A stretch of DNA of 10,270 bases from positions 1-10,270 of the forward strand of contig JAHHIK010000183.1 of NCBI GenBank assembly GCA_019358935.1, read 5' to 3'. Under the pieces are notes generated by a model. That model saw only the letters and a program-made list of their open reading frames with translations. It searched no databases and was not told the DNA's origin. Position numbers and translations under genes: made by a program. Shown here one piece after another: positions 4,154-9,929 of this stretch. Numbering within the stretch: position 1 is the stretch's first letter; the number at the start of each line of letters is the position of its first letter. This DNA comes from Tolypothrix carrinoi HA7290-LM1. Its GTDB lineage: Bacteria; Cyanobacteriota; Cyanobacteriia; Cyanobacteriales; Nostocaceae.

Positions 4154-4492
4154 TTATCCAACCAAACTTTCGACACAAAGAGGAACCATATCGCCATTCC
4201 TCGTCAGTCCTAACAACATTGGTTGTTGGGGTTGAATTAATTGACCTGTGAGTACGCAGCGTTCTTCTTGTTGAGCTGTTGCGGCTATGCTGGCTCGAAT
4301 ATCAGATCGCGAAAATCGGGGTTTCCACTCACCTGATTTTTGCTGGACATAATTCCAGAGTATATCTCGGATCAATGCCTGATATCCCTGGCTGCCGGCT
4401 AATTCTTTGAGTTTATCTTTTAGTTCGCGCTCCAGACGGATGCTGGTAACTTCCATGTCGGTGGTTGGCGTGCGAGCGATCGTATGCATCAC
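4154..4492 (-). CDS. trcR: Ribbon-helix-helix (CopG-like) repressor, TrcR-like regulator of the tRNA array
   Basis: RHH pattern EVTSIRLERELKDKLKELAG..GYQALIRDILWNYV; AAGGAG RBS upstream (ATG at 4489 may be the true start); gene order recalls the Anabaena PCC 7120 all0854 locus; symbol from recollection, not a search. Confidence 0.78.
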   Translation of the reverse strand: MMHTIARTPTTDMEVTSIRLERELKDKLKELAGSQGYQALIRDILWNYVQQKSGEWKPRFSRSDIRASIAATAQQEERCVLTGQLIQPQQPMLLGLTRNGDMVPLCVESLVG

Positions 4493-4890: not shown

Positions 4891-5409
4891 GTGACGAGCG
4901 CAATGCAAGTGTTAGAGCAATCCGTGGTGGTTTTTTCGCAAAACTACTTGCCACTGTGTCGGGTAAATATCAAGCGGGCGATCGTGCTGTTAGTAACAAA
5001 TAAAGCCGAACCGCTCGACTTTATCGCCGAAAACGGATGGCAAGTCCACTCACCCAGCTTGGTACTTTATGTACCAAAACACATTCGCTTGAAAATCGCT
5101 TCTAGTGAGCGCGTGTGGAAAATTCCACCGGTAAATCGACGGGAAGTGTTGCGACGAGACCATCACAGTTGCCAATATTGCGGTAGCAGCAAACATCTAA
5201 CGCTGGATCATGTGATTCCGCGATCTAAAGGCGGTTTGCATAGTTGGGATAACGTAGTCACAGCTTGTGAAAAATGTAACTCCCGTAAAGGCGATCGCAC
5301 TCTCTTTGAGACTGGTATGCAACTGCGTACCAAGCCAAAAGCACCAGTTCATCCGGCTATATCTTTCGCCGAACAGTTCTGGCGTTCGGAACAAGCAAAC
5401 CTGGAATAA
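4891..5409 (+). CDS. HNH endonuclease (McrA-like, zinc finger)
   Basis: RREVLRRDHHSCQYCG..LTLDHVIPRSKGG..SWDNVVTACEKCNSRKG; AAGGAG RBS 7 nt before GTG. Confidence 0.93.
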   Translation: MTSAMQVLEQSVVVFSQNYLPLCRVNIKRAIVLLVTNKAEPLDFIAENGWQVHSPSLVLYVPKHIRLKIASSERVWKIPPVNRREVLRRDHHSCQYCGSSKHLTLDHVIPRSKGGLHSWDNVVTACEKCNSRKGDRTLFETGMQLRTKPKAPVHPAISFAEQFWRSEQANLE

Positions 5410-5425: not shown

Positions 5426-5842
5426 ATGTTGAAATTAACTTACACTGAAAAAAGCTTTCACTTAGAGTGTTTAAATCAGTCCTTGGAGCAATGGGTGCAA
5501 GGGCGAGTGATTTTGGCACTGCGAGTTGGGCAATGTCTGTGCGTAGAACCGAGTACCGCTTCCTTTTTGCTTCCTGTTGATTTACCAGGAGTAGAAGCGC
5601 TAAAAGCTGAGGTAAAGCGCGACGTGTCAGAAATTATGGCGTTGTCAGTTTGTGATGCCGACTATTTAGAAGTTACTCTGCGCGGTTCTTGGATATCAAA
5701 TGGTTCTGAGGATGCTGAGGGTGTGTTTGTCACGACGATGAGCGATTCGCCTAACGGCGATAGCTTCGCTTCACGCACTGAATTTTTTGTACACAAACTC
5801 TGGCAAGAGGCGCAAAAAAGCGCCTCCGTCGTGAGCGAGTGA
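5426..5842 (+). CDS. Conserved cyanobacterial hypothetical protein (Alr0857-like)
   Basis: 138 aa, MLKLTYTE..LEQWVQGRVILALRVG..EPSTASFLLP; GGAG upstream; 16 bp after the HNH stop. Confidence 0.75.
   Translation: MLKLTYTEKSFHLECLNQSLEQWVQGRVILALRVGQCLCVEPSTASFLLPVDLPGVEALKAEVKRDVSEIMALSVCDADYLEVTLRGSWISNGSEDAEGVFVTTMSDSPNGDSFASRTEFFVHKLWQEAQKSASVVSE
5747..5773. mobile_element. 27-bp SDR5-like insertion splitting a HIP1 site inside the CDS
   Basis: GCGAT(5742-5746) + 27 bp with hairpins TCGCC-TAAC-GGCGA and AGC-TTC-GCT + CGC(5774-5776); in frame. Confidence 0.6.
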
Positions 5843-6204: not shown

Positions 6205-6245
6205 TTGACATCCTTTGTAGTATATTTGTAATATTTGTGTAGTGA
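6205..6245 (+). promoter_or_regulatory. Sigma70-type promoter of the tRNA array with three phased operator boxes
   Basis: TTGACA(6205-6210)-18 bp-TAATAT(6229-6234); TGTAGTAT(6216), TGTAATAT(6227), TGTAGTGA(6238). Confidence 0.78.
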
Positions 6246-6570: not shown

Positions 6571-6577
6571 CAAACAT

Positions 6578-6651
6578 GGGGGTATAGCTCAACTGGTTAG
6601 AGCAGTCGCCTGTCGAGCGAAAGGCTACGAGTTCAAGTCTCGTTACTCCCG
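6578..6651 (+). tRNA. trnD: tRNA-Asp(GUC)
   Basis: Acceptor GGGGGTA/TACTCCC, G73, loop CT-GTC-GA, T arm ACGAG-TTCAAGT-CTCGT. Confidence 0.88.
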
Positions 6652-6655
6652 TGAT

Positions 6656-6729
6656 AGTCCTGTAGGCGAATAGTTTAAGCGATCAGTTTCTCAAGCTGAA
6701 GATTGCGGGTGCAAATCCCGTCGGGACTT
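6656..6729 (+). tRNA. trnE: tRNA-Glu(CUC), atypical or degenerate
   Basis: AGTCCTG/CGGGACT, anticodon arm TCAGT-TT-CTC-AA-GCTGA; poorly paired D arm, T loop TGCAAAT. Confidence 0.6.
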
Positions 6730-6735
6730 GCAAAT

Positions 6736-6808
6736 GGCTGAGTAGCTAAGTGGTTGAAGGCGTCGGTCTGCAAAACCGATATCGTGAGTTCAAATCTCAC
6801 CTCAGCCT
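6736..6808 (+). tRNA. trnC: tRNA-Cys(GCA)
   Basis: GGCTGAG/CTCAGCC, U73, TCGGT-CT-GCA-AA-ACCGA. Confidence 0.9.
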
Positions 6809-6814
6809 TTGTGT

Positions 6815-6885
6815 CGCAGTGTAGCTTAACGCAAAGCCCCAAGCTCATACCTTGGTTGATGCGGGTGCAAATCCCGCCACTGCTA
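6815..6885 (+). tRNA. trnM: tRNA with CAU anticodon (Met-like), atypical
   Basis: CGCAGTG/CACTGCT with C1-U72 mismatch, CCAAG-CT-CAT-AC-CTTGG, D loop lacking GG, T loop TGCAAAT. Confidence 0.65.
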
Positions 6886-6890
6886 CTCAT

Positions 6891-6961
6891 GCAGGGATGG
6901 TGTAACGGCAACACCGCGCTCTCCAAAAGCGTTGTTCTGGGTTCAAATCCTAGTCCCTGCG
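6891..6961 (+). tRNA. trnW: tRNA-Trp(CCA)
   Basis: GCAGGGA/TCCCTGC, G73, GCGCT-CT-CCA-AA-AGCGT. Confidence 0.88.
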
Positions 6962-7001
6962 TTCTACTTCTTAAACTTGCACGGAGTAGATATTTAAATA
7001 T

Positions 7002-7074
7002 GGTGCCGTGGGCAAATGGTTAAGCCACCAGGCTTTCAATCTGGGGATTGCGGGTTCAAATCCCGTCGGCACTA
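7002..7074 (+). tRNA. trnE: tRNA-Glu(UUC)
   Basis: GGTGCCG/CGGCACT, CCAGG-CT-TTC-AA-TCTGG. Confidence 0.88.
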
Positions 7075-7082
7075 TAAAATTT

Positions 7083-7163
7083 GGGTCGGCTCGCCTATTG
7101 GTGTGGGCAGCGCTCTGTAAAAGCGTCCTTTATTGGTTGCAGGTTCAATTCCTGCCCGACCCA
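7083..7163 (+). tRNA. trnY: tRNA-Tyr(GUA)
   Basis: GGGTCGG/CCGACCC, A73, GCGCT-CT-GTA-AA-AGCGT, extended variable region. Confidence 0.85.
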
Positions 7164-7167
7164 CTGA

Positions 7168-7257
7168 GGAGAAGTGGCTGAGTGGCTAAAAGCGTCCTCC
7201 TGCTAAGAGGAAACGGGTAGTTAATACCCGTCGCAGGTTCAAATCCTGTCTTCTCCG
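7168..7257 (+). tRNA. trnS: tRNA-Ser(GCU)
   Basis: GGAGAAG/CTTCTCC, G73, TCCTC-CT-GCT-AA-GAGGA, long variable arm ACGGGTA/TACCCGT. Confidence 0.92.
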
Positions 7258-7261
7258 TTTT

Positions 7262-7335
7262 GGTCGCGTGGTGTAACTGGATAACATCTGAGTCTACGAA
7301 ACTCAAGAGTGAAGGTTCAATTCCTTCCGCGATCG
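7262..7335 (+). tRNA. trnR: tRNA-Arg(ACG)
   Basis: GGTCGCG/CGCGATC, TGAGT-CT-ACG-AA-ACTCA. Confidence 0.9.
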
Positions 7336-7343
7336 CCTTACAT

Positions 7344-7412
7344 GGGAGAGATGAAGTAGTGGCTGATTAGTGTTGAATTAAAGCAGTCCACTAGATAAAA
7401 CTTATCTCTCCT
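7344..7412 (+). ncRNA. Non-tRNA 69-nt stem-loop element within the array
   Basis: GGGAGAGATGA/TTATCTCTCCT (11 bp), asymmetric internal loop, TAGTGG/CCACTA, CTG/CAG; no T or D loop motifs. Confidence 0.4.
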
Positions 7413-7419
7413 TCTATAT

Positions 7420-7493
7420 CCCCCGGTAGCTCAGTTGGTAGTAGCGTCTGTCTGAAGAACAGAAGGTCGTCGGTTCGATTCCGACCTGGGGGG
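7420..7493 (+). tRNA. trnF: tRNA-Phe(GAA)
   Basis: CCCCCGG/CTGGGGG, TCTGT-CT-GAA-GA-ACAGA; unusual G73 and an extra nucleotide in the D arm. Confidence 0.82.
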
Positions 7494-7499
7494 CTTCGT

Positions 7500-7574
7500 T
7501 GCCCCATAGCTCAATGGTAGAGCGAGCGGCTGTTAACCGCGAGGTTGTAGGTTCGAGTCCTACTGGGGCAGCCA
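7500..7574 (+). tRNA. trnN: tRNA-Asn(GUU), CCA encoded
   Basis: TGCCCCA/TGGGGCA, G73-CCA, loop CT-GTT-AA. Confidence 0.92.
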
Positions 7575-7584
7575 TTTATCTCAT

Positions 7585-7660
7585 TGCCGGGTGGACAAAT
7601 TGGTAAAGTCACCTGGAGAAAGAAACAGGGGTTTTGCAGGTTCAAGCCCTGCCCCGGCAG
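7585..7660 (+). pseudogene. tRNA pseudogene, Gln-like body with corrupted anticodon loop
   Basis: TGCCGGG/CCCGGCA (U1-A72, G73), D and T arms intact, anticodon arm CCTG-GAGAAAGAAA-CAGG all purine with no U33. Confidence 0.65.
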
Positions 7661-7728
7661 CGATTTTCGATTTTGTAAGTTTAGTATTGTACCGCTAACA
7701 TCCAAAATTTTTGGTTAGCGGCATCTAT

Positions 7729-7804
7729 TGGGGAGTAGGCGACGTTGGCGATCGCCACCTGATTTTGGATCAGGATCTCGCGGGTTCGATTCCTGCCTCC
7801 CCAG
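7729..7804 (+). tRNA. trnQ: tRNA-Gln(UUG)
   Basis: TGGGGAG/CTCCCCA, G73, CCTGA-TT-TTG-GA-TCAGG; HIP1 in the D arm. Confidence 0.85.
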
Positions 7805-7833
7805 TTTCTGCTTTCATAAAGCAGCTAAATTAT

Positions 7834-7907
7834 GCTCCTGTAGCCCAACTGGTAGAGGCTGCCGTCTCAAAAACGGTAGGTTGTGAGTTCGAGTCTCACC
7901 AGGAGTA
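7834..7907 (+). tRNA. trnL: tRNA-Leu(CAA), short variable region
   Basis: GCTCCTG/CAGGAGT, A73, GCCGT-CT-CAA-AA-ACGGT. Confidence 0.85.
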
Positions 7908-7921
7908 GCAATTTTTACTTT

Positions 7922-7996
7922 GCTCTTGTAGCCCAATTGGTAGAGGTGGCAGATTTAAAATCTGTTTATGTGTGGGTTCGAGTCCCACCAAGAGCA
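7922..7996 (+). tRNA. trnL: tRNA-Leu(UAA), short variable region, no intron
   Basis: GCTCTTG/CAAGAGC, A73, GCAGA-TT-TAA-AA-TCTGT. Confidence 0.85.
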
Positions 7997-8000
7997 TCAA

Positions 8001-8073
8001 CGGGGTGTAGCGCAGCTGGCAGCGCGCCTGCTTTGGGAGCAGGATGTCGCAGGTTCAAATCCTGTCACCCCGA
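8001..8073 (+). tRNA. trnP: tRNA-Pro(UGG)
   Basis: CGGGGTG/CACCCCG, A73, CCTGC-TT-TGG-GA-GCAGG. Confidence 0.93.
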
Positions 8074-8080
8074 TCGCTTT

Positions 8081-8154
8081 ACTCCCGTAACCCAACTGGC
8101 AGAGGTGTCAGGTTGAGAGCCTGATTAGTACCAGTTCAAATCTGGTCGGGAGTA
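8081..8154 (+). tRNA. trnL: tRNA-Leu(GAG), short variable region
   Basis: ACTCCCG/CGGGAGT, A73, TCAGG-TT-GAG-AG-CCTGA. Confidence 0.82.
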
Positions 8155-8162
8155 TTAATTAT

Positions 8163-8236
8163 ACCTCCATAGCCCAACGGTAGAGGCGCTGTGTTCAGAA
8201 CGCAGTTACGTGTCGGTTCAAATCTGACTGGAGGTA
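8163..8236 (+). tRNA. trnL: tRNA-Leu(CAG), short variable region
   Basis: ACCTCCA/TGGAGGT, A73, CTGTG-TT-CAG-AA-CGCAG. Confidence 0.82.
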
Positions 8237-8244
8237 TCTATTAA

Positions 8245-8319
8245 GCCCCTGTAGCCCAATTGGAAGAGGCTCTAAGCTTAGAACTTAGATGTTTACTGGT
8301 TCAAGTCCAGTCAGGGGTA
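8245..8319 (+). tRNA. trnL: tRNA-Leu(UAG), short variable region
   Basis: GCCCCTG/CAGGGGT, A73, CTAAG-CT-TAG-AA-CTTAG. Confidence 0.85.
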
Positions 8320-8328
8320 TTGGTGCGA

Positions 8329-8407
8329 TGCGGGTGAAGTAGCCACGGTAGGCTTGGAGGTCTCATAAGCCTCTTTTTAGCAGGTTCAATTCCTGCCCCC
8401 GCCACCA
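8329..8407 (+). tRNA. tRNA with CAU anticodon (Met/fMet/Ile2 undetermined), irregular 5' half, CCA encoded
   Basis: GAGGT-CT-CAT-AA-GCCTC, T arm GCAGG-TTCAATT-CCTGC, 3' CCCCGCC-A-CCA; 5' strand TGCGGGT pairs only partly. Confidence 0.6.
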
Positions 8408-8417
8408 AAAAAAGCGT

Positions 8418-8494
8418 GCTGGTGTAGCTCAATCTGGCAGAGCAACCGCCTTGTAAGCGGTAGGTTGCAGGTTCAACTCCTGTCACCAGCCCCA
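8418..8494 (+). tRNA. trnT: tRNA-Thr(UGU), CCA encoded
   Basis: GCTGGTG/CACCAGC, ACCGC-CT-TGT-AA-GCGGT. Confidence 0.93.
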
Positions 8495-8553
8495 GAATTT
8501 CGCCATCTGCGTGCGGCTATGCCAAATTTGTATAGTCGATTGAGGAGTGTAAT

Positions 8554-9189
8554 ATGGCTGTAATAACTGTTACTGATGCTTTGGCAGAATTGACGCTGCT
8601 GCAAAAGCGCATCGAATCTACGAGAGCGGCTTTAGAAAACAATACTTTAATAACTGTTGTTGAAGTCGGCAAAGTTCCTACTGGCTTTAAATCCAGAGAG
8701 GAATACGAAGTCAATGCTAAAGCACTTGTGCAAAGAGTTCAAGCATTGCTTGACAGAAGACGAGCGATTAAAAGAGCAATCGTAGTTTCCAATGCTTCTA
8801 CTCGCGTGACAGTTGCAGGAGAGGAGATGACGGTAGCAGAAGCGATTGAAATGAAAAATTTCATCGACTATTACGAGGCAATTCTCGATACTATGCAGTC
8901 AGCTTACACTCAAACTCGCAATCAATACGAGAAAGCGCAGGCGAAAATTAAAGAAAGACTGGATAAACTGGCTTTAGAGGTTTTGGGAAAAAATGAAGCT
9001 GTAAATTCTGACCAATATCAGTCTTTGGTTGATAGCTTTATGGCAAGAGAAGGTGTGGAATTGTTAGATCCGACTAATATCTCTAAAGAAATAGAAAGAC
9101 GAATGACATTTATTGAAGAGTTCAAATCGACATGCGATCGCGTACTTTCCATCAGCAATGCCACGACAACTGTAGAAATCCCAGATTAG
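8554..9189 (+). CDS. Hypothetical helical/coiled-coil protein embedded in the tRNA array
   Basis: 211 aa, GAGGAG RBS at 8542-8547; two related motifs ITVTDALAEL and MTVAEAIEMK, plus AIVVSNAST and SISNATTTVEI; resemblance to DIP1984-like proteins is by eye only. Confidence 0.88.
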   Translation: MAVITVTDALAELTLLQKRIESTRAALENNTLITVVEVGKVPTGFKSREEYEVNAKALVQRVQALLDRRRAIKRAIVVSNASTRVTVAGEEMTVAEAIEMKNFIDYYEAILDTMQSAYTQTRNQYEKAQAKIKERLDKLALEVLGKNEAVNSDQYQSLVDSFMAREGVELLDPTNISKEIERRMTFIEEFKSTCDRVLSISNATTTVEIPD

Positions 9190-9198
9190 AATAATACT

Positions 9199-9428
9199 TG
9201 CTGGTCACTCGAAAATCTCTGAATTTATGGACTGCCTGAAAAGGCAACGAACTTAGGATTCGTCTCTAACTTTAAAGCTCAAAGGTTAACGCTCATCGCT
9301 TAAACCTTAACGCTCAAAGTTTAACTTGTTAAAGTTCAAATTTTAAAGCCTAAAGTTCGATGAAATCCAGGATGACGGTTTTAGGTTCCATAAAGCCTTG
9401 GGGTTTCCACCTGGCTGAGTGGTCAGCA
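9199..9428 (+). ncRNA. Candidate structured ncRNA with an internal heptamer-repeat tract
   Basis: 13-bp closing stem 9199-9211/9416-9428; TTTATGGA/TCCATAAA 9224-9231/9387-9394; GAAA-tetraloop hairpin 9233-9246; hairpin 9247-9263; CCAGG/CCTGG 9367-9371/9410-9414. Confidence 0.7.
9268..9359 (+). repeat. 13 degenerate tandem heptamer units (consensus AAGYTYA)
   Basis: AACTTTA AAGCTCA AAGGTTA ACGCTCA TCGCTTA AACCTTA ACGCTCA AAGTTTA ACTTGTTA AAGTTCA AATTTTA AAGCCTA AAGTTCG. Confidence 0.85.
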
Positions 9429-9447
9429 TTTTAAAGCTTTTAACTAT

Positions 9448-9518
9448 GCGAATGTGGTGTAGCGGTAGCATGTGAGTCTTCCAAACTCTTGGCACGAGTT
9501 CGAGCCTCGTCATTCGCT
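9448..9518 (+). tRNA. trnG: tRNA-Gly(UCC)
   Basis: GCGAATG/CATTCGC, U73, loop CT-TCC-AA. Confidence 0.9.
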
Positions 9519-9523
9519 TTAAT

Positions 9524-9599
9524 AGTCTTGTAGCTTCAACGGTAGAGCATTTGCATACTGAAGAGCAAGTGGTTGCAAGTTCGATTCTTGTCAGGACTA
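9524..9599 (+). pseudogene. tRNA pseudogene (possibly ex-Val) with 10-nt anticodon loop
   Basis: AGTCTTG/CAGGACT, A73, T arm GCAAG-TTCGATT-CTTGT; anticodon arm TTTGC-ATACTGAAGA-GCAAG. Confidence 0.6.
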
Positions 9600-9609
9600 T
9601 TAATTTTAT

Positions 9610-9683
9610 GGGGTCATAGCTCAATTGGCTAGAGCGCCTGCCTTGCAAGCAGGAGGTTATGGGTTCGATTCCCATTGATTCCA
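9610..9683 (+). tRNA. trnA: tRNA-Ala(UGC)
   Basis: GGGGTCA/TGATTCC with G3-U70, A73, CCTGC-CT-TGC-AA-GCAGG. Confidence 0.92.
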
Positions 9684-9749
9684 CTTAGTTTTAGGTACAA
9701 GTAGTCGAGTCACTGTAAAATTATTTTACTTGCTTGACCACTAAAGCCA

Positions 9750-9929
9750 ATGACTAAAAAACAACGCGTATATATCAAAGAAGTTTTAGAAGCTGCTGTA
9801 CGTGAATCAAAAAGTATCAGTGAAGTAGCGAGGAGACTTGGAATTTCAGATAGAGGAGGAAACAGGAAAACAATAAAAACAGGACTTACGCAACTGGCAC
9901 ATTGCGATCGCCAATTAGTAGTAATTTAG
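9750..9929 (+). pseudogene. N-terminal fragment of a tRNA-associated HNH endonuclease, truncated by an IS at 9879
   Basis: My translation MTKKQRVYIKEVLEAAVRESKSISEVARRLGISDRGGNRKTIK resembles the helical N-terminus of HNH proteins found next to tRNA genes; the frame then runs into the IS end; no HNH core present. Confidence 0.6.

Follow-up and report, generated by a model that had tools for sequence, protein, structure and literature searches.

TRAP and HutP are oligomeric proteins that read evenly spaced short motifs in single-stranded RNA, their sites lying in 5' leaders with a terminator. In the Ro60/Rsr systems with Y RNA or YrlA, the RNA has paired ends, a region that binds the protein and a domain that resembles tRNA and is sometimes permuted; these systems are found near tRNAs and repair genes. 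In VIPR, as far as the accessible text of two preprints goes, a small and mostly phage-borne gene lies beside an RNA that combines a track of short-period repeats with a pseudoknotted portion, the vrRNA having 9-16 short repeats and then a pseudoknotted tail (10.64898/2026.04.26.720920), and Vipr protomers polymerise along the repeats (10.64898/2026.04.26.720927). As to genomic setting, the excerpts available of PMC8421152 and PMC10272220 describe a trn operon of 26 tRNA genes in Anabaena PCC 7120.

The locus studied here lies in a window of 10,270 nt (the whole stretch of DNA that was analysed), which is a cyanobacterial tRNA-array locus of the TrcR type. It shares with the trn operon an RHH repressor gene, an HNH gene, an alr0857-family gene and a TrcR-type promoter site, the 8-nt site being the one placed at the trn promoter in the excerpt of PMC10272220; a motif search found a second copy of it in front of the RHH repressor gene (Table 1). 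It differs in that a gene for a 211-aa protein and a structured element behind it are embedded in the array between tRNA-Thr and tRNA-Gly, a gene-RNA unit that goes unmentioned in the same excerpts of PMC8421152 and PMC10272220. For this genome, we infer that transcription of the array from the probable promoter at 6205-6234 would include gene and RNA. The element starts nine bases past the stop codon of the ORF, and tRNA-Gly follows at 9448.

Table 1. Features of the locus, in positions of the window
Feature	Position	Strand	Basis or remark
RHH repressor gene	4154-4492	minus	
HNH gene	4891-5409		
alr0857-family gene	5426-5842		
Probable array promoter	6205-6234	plus	promoter scan
TrcR-type site TGTAGTAT	6216-6223	plus	motif search; inside the promoter-like site; site as in the available excerpt of PMC10272220
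tRNA array holding gene and RNA	6577-9684	plus	23 ARAGORN calls, plus Rfam
Partner gene, 211 aa, predicted helical hairpins, phrog_1491/T5.085 family, DIP1984-like fold	8554-9189	plus	ORF call
Predicted structured non-coding RNA, 230 nt	9199-9428	plus	closed by P1
P1	9199-9211/9416-9428	plus	13 pairs, three G-U
P2	9213-9219/9400-9406	plus	5' strand behind conserved YGAAA
P3	9224-9231/9387-9394	plus	
Two small hairpins, variable slot	9233-9246 and 9247-9263	plus	alignment
Heptamer register, 13 units U-Y-A-A-N-N-N	9272-9362	plus	unit 8 one base longer (8 nt)
AAAU and pseudoknot 5' strand CCAGG	9363-9371	plus	CCAGG at 9367
Pseudoknot 3' strand CCUGG and conserved CUG	9410-9417	plus	runs into P1

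The resemblance to VIPR, a small gene beside an RNA with a repeat track and a pseudoknot, goes along with clear differences. The period is 5 with GGY/NN in VIPR and 7 with U-Y-A-A here; the protein has a RAMP/RRM fold there and is helical and DIP1984-like here; the track of the present unit sits inside a closed RNA, 230-460 nt long among its copies; and the variable bases, where VIPR has hypervariable skip-code positions, are not hypervariable here and have no target in the own genome. Compared with TRAP and HutP, the RNA is a closed one behind the gene and the protein fold is unrelated. A tRNA-like module, called in 26 of the 77 cellular homologues and 2 of the 66 viral ones but absent from the present copy, is reminiscent of the Ro60-Y RNA systems, and the heptamer track and pseudoknot are foreign to Y RNA; the YrlA model of Rfam had no match on the element, and no TROVE protein occurred among the 10 + 24 representatives of recurrent neighbours that were scanned.

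The original prediction had proposed that this stretch folds into nested long-range helices with a looped-out 7-nt register, and all of the motifs it quoted (P1, P2, P3, two local hairpins and CCAGG/CCTGG) were found at their places. Folding of the single sequence gave a modest signal that did not pick the strand (z -2.56 for plus and -3.40 for minus, against shuffles). Pair probabilities were high for P1 and 0.72-0.88 for seven of the eight pairs of P3, with 0.03-0.04 for P2, 0.30-0.36 for hairpin A and 0.01 for hairpin B, and the heptamer tract was just 35% unpaired. The two local hairpins can be located at 9233-9263, but their probability in single-sequence folding is low and the slot they occupy is variable among copies. 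A scan of the window with Rfam 15 found no family at gathering threshold for the element, the best sub-threshold match being mir-1502 on the minus strand (27 of 66 bits, E 0.63); this covariance-model search, which the prediction had proposed as a check, yielded tRNAs alone in 8 homologous loci. A coding reading of the tract is ruled out by stops in all six frames, and tmRNA identity was rejected on the same stops together with the lack of a tmRNA call by ARAGORN. Because single-sequence folding was modest and comparable tracts are common in the genome, the case needed comparison.

Among 22 homologues, pairing reaches 98% in P1 and 99% in the pseudoknot, with compensation at 10 of 13 and 3 of 5 pairs, respectively; P2 stands at 82% (6 of 7 compensated) and P3, where the alignment is poor, at 61% (7 of 8). 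The covariation score was reached by none of 500 shuffles, and partners slid out of register pair at 32-45%. Exchange between G-U, G-C and A-U in P1 of the homologues fixes the plus strand, which bears out the earlier argument, made from the G-U pairs of P1, for RNA pairing rather than a DNA palindrome. The CCAGG/CCTGG pairing, predicted to cross P2 and P3, does so, as CCAGG falls inside P3 and CCTGG between P2' and P1', and it covaries strongly, as P1 does. In 39 representatives with <60% protein identity, the cognate P1 was the best of all in 34 (P1 being picked by best pairing), while the cognate P2/P3 duplex beat all non-cognates in just 8 (-13.0 vs -9.2 kcal/mol), so that P2 and P3 have their compensated pairs in their favour and are less well supported than the other two. 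The RNA ranges from 208 to 461 nt across homologues. As a whole, the comparison supports a structured RNA on the plus strand, whose helices are nested and crossed by a pseudoknot and whose register is selected for spacing.

Within the register, 11 of the 13 units begin with T-Y-A, one with CTA and the last with TCG, and an identical 13-unit parse with one longer unit recurs in 58 of 65 cyanobacterial loci, where the A is invariant. The fixed U and A of the unit show 0-5% divergence between homologues, compared with 7-75% at the four-fold sites of the gene, in line with the proposed selection on spacing. Positions 5-7 also drift more slowly than four-fold sites (0.08 vs 0.19; 0.41 vs 0.63), and the variable positions are biased to A, G/C and C. 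Over the 39 representatives the unit count has a median of 12 and a range of 2-21, obtained by loose chaining for which the shuffled control reaches 13 at its 95th percentile. In some phage tracts, hairpins appear by eye to be inserted between units.

A larger point, absent from the original prediction, is that the RNA is linked to the upstream gene: as judged by comparison of loci, the element belongs to a widespread gene-plus-RNA unit that extends across phyla and phages. Of 112 loci with a gene match, 100 were distinct, had a full 3' end and offered enough DNA for a test of periodicity; period 7 was the best lag downstream of the gene in 87 of these 100 as against 15 of 97 upstream, with z >3 in 80 and 3, respectively. 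A pseudoknot motif (AA[TC]C-NNNN ... N'N'N'N'-GCT[GA], four pairs required) was present downstream of the gene at 143 of 163 loci and upstream of it at 1 of 159, and it took 25 different paired sequence forms; this sample includes GTDB loci and comprises 187 matches minus 18 duplicates and 6 that were short. P1 starts <=40 nt past the stop codon in 114 of the 143, and the gaps reach 283 nt. Most of the 20 loci without the strict motif carry, by eye, a variant of it.

As the motif test selects for pairing, a pairing-blind test was added, in which two positions were left free on each side. In viral contigs, 12 of 12 such patterns beside the gene were complementary, as against 14 of 68 elsewhere (80 fetched of 118 loci found). 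An RNA model built from 17 cyanobacterial RNAs gave 17 full-length matches in 150 genomes, all with the gene upstream, though some of these may be model-building loci; a further 13 partial matches had no gene upstream, one of them at a contig end. No other gene recurred in more than 15 of the 63 cellular loci or in more than 10 of the 70 viral ones. At the level of sequence comparison, these results establish a closed, pseudoknotted RNA with a conserved register that is linked to one gene and none other. Single loci depart from the pairing: an Aeromonas phage (L032) and L188 have the gene with no evident RNA behind it, and L229 has a tract and a paired pseudoknot with no gene match within reach.

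The partner protein matches phrog_1491 (E 2.7e-54), a large family that includes T5.085 and stands under the database label "tail fiber", which is without support from fold or neighbourhood. The gene is patchily distributed, in 10 of 301 genomes of its own family and 14 of 401 of the phylum; the protein family occurs in 735 of 50,697 phage records, T5.085 among them, and a profile search returned 2,442 clusters at 50% identity. Scanning viral contigs with the single protein found no locus, whereas an alignment-based scan found 347. In several relatives (L009/L011, L008, L010, L335) the gene is truncated, interrupted by a stop or broken at a contig end next to insertion-like sequence, and in L010 most of the gene and the RNA appear to have been lost together.

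The protein model (pLDDT 95.4) consists of helical hairpins with four short strands. Its best fold match is 3KDQ, a DIP1984 protein (Foldseek E 1.5e-3; Z 11.2, with the next match at 7.8; rmsd 8.5 A over 152 aligned residues), and we regard it as a distant DIP1984 relative at most, because the rmsd is high and middling Z scores come easily to helical proteins. The DIP1984 and DUF6847 family HMMs stay below cut-off (15.5 of 70 bits and 14.9 of 27 bits), 3 of 150 partner-family members reach E 0.01 against them, and the partner profile met a single DIP1984 sequence at probability 3. A sequence search of solved structures gave nothing under E 0.04, with 3KDQ at E 0.082 when a deep alignment was used, and the ESM Atlas holds 30 unnamed look-alikes, the nearest named one being DUF6847 at 0.88, which is a lead only. 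A relation to T4 gp61.2 was rejected (probability 0.1).

Conserved basic residues are R19, R68, R69, K73 and K101, of which R19, R69, K73 and K101 are basic in >90% of 150 sequences. Predicted self-association of four copies scored 0.55 vs 0.24 for the best of 3 controls; in the calibration, which did not use four copies, 20 of 30 solved pairs and 1 of 23 single chains attained the mark applied. Contacts agree to >=94% and pLDDT is >=81 in these models, made of protein without RNA, which support, and do not show, self-association. The modelled interface is that of a symmetric pair, indicating neither a ring nor a filament; the similar fold 3KDQ was solved with four chains.

DIP1984 (NCBIfam NF038048, Pfam DUF6847, PDB 3KDQ) resembles the present system in the shared fold and in that its genes also precede a conserved structured element, in 8 of 9 loci. 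It differs in the size of the protein (about 150 aa, 211 aa here) and in the RNA, which belongs to another sequence family with no 7-nt autocorrelation and no match to the heptamer RNA model. That element, about 200 nt long and directly behind the DIP1984-family gene in L194-L202, has two copies with a T-loop-like insert; 10 of its 26 predicted pairs are compensated in 7 sequences, and none of the 5 copies scanned had an Rfam match. That DIP1984 genes have a downstream element of their own suggests that DIP1984-fold systems form a superfamily of protein-RNA pairs.

The slot between P3 and the tract is variable. In 26 of the 77 cellular loci and 2 of the 66 viral ones, ARAGORN calls a tRNA there; the calls bear 14 different anticodon labels, and their acceptor, D and T arms stay largely the same. 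One such nested tRNA scores 60.8 bits in Rfam, and this was the sole part to score in the 8 homologous loci. The drifting anticodon on a kept elbow suggests that the domain may be a tRNA mimic. By eye, it looks circularly permuted in distant families of the phylum and in one Erwinia phage. The present copy and the Calothrix-type copies lack it and have instead two hairpins of differing sequence. A tRNA is also close by (<=2 kb) at 63 of the 77 cellular loci and 49 of the 66 viral ones. The commonest neighbours in 63 GTDB loci are NADAR (15), PARG (13) and HNH genes (12 and 9), and in 70 viral loci PhoH (10).

Contigs of relatives from four metatranscriptomes cover 9197-9348, 9208-9348 and 9233-9370, and one spans gene and RNA; the 9233-9370 contig has adapters at both ends. 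The 5' part and the tract are covered in contigs from three studies, of which two have no gene cover, proving nothing. These contigs weakly indicate presence in RNA libraries, not ends, strand or level.

Of the explanations considered, we favour one in which the element supplies the RNA, and the upstream gene the protein, of a ribonucleoprotein, and as a whole we judge it moderately likely. The RNA would be transcribed with the upstream gene, here within a stress-induced tRNA array, and then be set free as a separate, closed molecule. Its compact core, made up of P1, P2, P3 and the pseudoknot, would grip both ends of a loop of about 12-13 heptamers, and the 211-aa protein would self-associate and bind along this loop, one unit after another, recognising U-Y-A-A and disregarding most of the remaining three bases, so that the RNA would dictate the size of the particle. 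A particle templated in this way suggests itself because evenly spaced fixed bases with free spacers suit a repeating protein surface, and the adjoining protein is taken as the reader because it is the only constant candidate, is basic and is predicted to self-associate. This part of the proposal, an RNA-templated protein-RNA particle, seems to us probable.

The optional tRNA-shaped domain would present a tRNA elbow to tRNA-binding machinery, and the most likely role of the particle would then be that of a helper of tRNA arrays, which keeps up or re-establishes translation under tRNA attack by acting as a scaffold or decoy for tRNA-directed enzymes. We infer this functional step from the neighbourhood only; granted the particle, a role in translation protection or rescue, suggested by neighbourhood and tRNA mimic, is conceivable but somewhat doubtful. 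More tentative still is the idea of a new class of RNA-templated assembly, in which a DIP1984-fold protein would build a fixed-size particle on a heptamer track closed by a pseudoknotted core, with an exchangeable module, a tRNA mimic or another, on display; the particle would counter tRNA-directed defence or rescue translation.

A much less likely alternative is a cis-acting 3' element, where the protein would wrap around the repeats in the mRNA that encodes it and thereby regulate this mRNA or read-through to the tRNAs that follow. The fixed place directly behind the stop codon, the metatranscriptome contig that covers gene and RNA, and the precedent of TRAP and HutP as readers of spaced short motifs would all agree with it, but a long covarying helix closes the ends, as in free RNAs, the downstream genes vary, the gaps from the stop codon can be as long as noted above, a tRNA-shaped insert is difficult to account for, and no terminator-like site overlaps the element. 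It is improbable that the RNA is a guide of the VIPR kind, in which U-Y-A-A would be covered by the protein and the other three bases per unit would jointly specify a nucleic-acid target. Despite the similar outline of the vrRNA, the variable positions evolve more slowly than four-fold sites and are biased, skip rules 0-4 gave no target in the own genome above unit-shuffled controls, there is one RNA per locus, and the protein has no RRM fold. Slightly less probable again is a catalytic or once-catalytic RNA, akin to the core of RNase P and serving tRNA arrays. Here, the succession P1 - P2 - insert - pseudoknot 5' - P2' - pseudoknot 3' - P1' and the flanks are reminiscent of P4 in the RNase P RNA of this genome (AAAGTCCGG ... 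CCGGCTTA there, AAAATCCAGG ... CCTGGCTG here), and the context is one of tRNAs. However, no RNase P model matches at E up to 1, the G-C pair and one A-U pair next to the bulge have given way to mismatches, the bulged U is C in 5 of 39 representatives, and about 50 nt separate the strands, as against about 350 in RNase P. Identity with RNase P RNA itself was rejected, since the defining P4 flanking pairs and the inter-strand domains are missing and the bulged U is not invariant.

The repeats themselves raise the question whether an STRR of the Nostocales has fallen into a chance hairpin, a caveat already attached to the original prediction together with the concern that such a tract might be scattered through unrelated intergenic regions. 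Generic tracts are indeed scattered: there are 188 T-Y-A heptamer tracts in the own genome (T-Y-A at 7 or 8 of 8 steps), and an STRR even lies inside its RNase P RNA. For this reason, the tract alone is not evidence. However, 180 of the 188 hold six or fewer distinct units of eight, and the pseudoknot pattern is found within 330 nt of just 2 and directly behind the tract only in this one. Moreover, the scatter does not refute the structured-RNA reading, because the same tract and core recur behind the same gene in non-cyanobacterial phages, those of Escherichia, Vibrio, Klebsiella, Lactococcus and Bacillus. With the strong covariation of the element added, a chance hairpin is extremely improbable, and identity with STRR, which are near-homogeneous scattered arrays without a conserved partner, is refuted by the period, motif, covariation and pairing-blind tests. 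The best nucleotide match to the tract in the own genome, an exact 21-nt tandem repeat with a T-Y-A sub-period (C148 10442-10699, L350) that is open in one frame without a start, was discarded, having neither core nor partner gene. In the RNase P RNA of the own genome (L205), an inverted pair of STRR arrays lies inside the gene; STRR insertions in this gene are known from heterocyst-forming cyanobacteria.

The protein-RNA unit is widespread and undescribed: the literature on T5.085, DIP1984, DUF6847, 3KDQ and phrog 1491, surveyed outside subscription journals, contains no account of it. The available part of the COMPASS preprint (10.64898/2026.10.21.760802) reports one period-7 cluster, of another build with inverted arrays and no partner protein. 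PMC10690425 lists 10,006 viral candidates, and 6 of its supplementary files hold no match to the element; fragments of the RNA may be listed in its remaining supplements or in the COMPASS database. The accessible portion of PMC4933390 describes two 100-nt phage sRNAs, and those of PMC11109978 and PMC10884466 contain nothing bearing on the unit. In the T5 reference record, eight stable RNAs are annotated in the region and the RNA behind T5.085 (T5 43143-43504) is left blank.

The presence of this conserved protein-RNA unit in T5 makes it testable in E. coli. For the DIP1984 fold it is a first lead to function, and it may help to explain why stable RNAs that lack an assigned function occur in phages and stress-induced tRNA arrays. 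If the templated particle is real, then it would form, with the sister RNAs of DIP1984, an old superfamily of protein-RNA particles present in a textbook phage, and phages and mobile tRNA arrays would use such a particle against tRNA-directed defence or for translation rescue.

Some further observations concern the array. At 9524-9599 there is a tRNA-like gene (Rfam 46.6 bits) with an odd anticodon arm that was missed by ARAGORN and is decaying in relatives. Atypical tRNA genes lie at 7585-7661 and 8333-8407, one with a four-base anticodon call and one with a weak Rfam score, and a hairpin-closed stretch without a tRNA call (7338-7419) separates tRNA-Arg from tRNA-Phe. Behind the array, 9750-9929 holds a truncated HTH/HNH-like gene (phrog_10822, E 1.6e-5); a full HNH gene stands near the gene-RNA unit in 12 of 63 loci of relatives.
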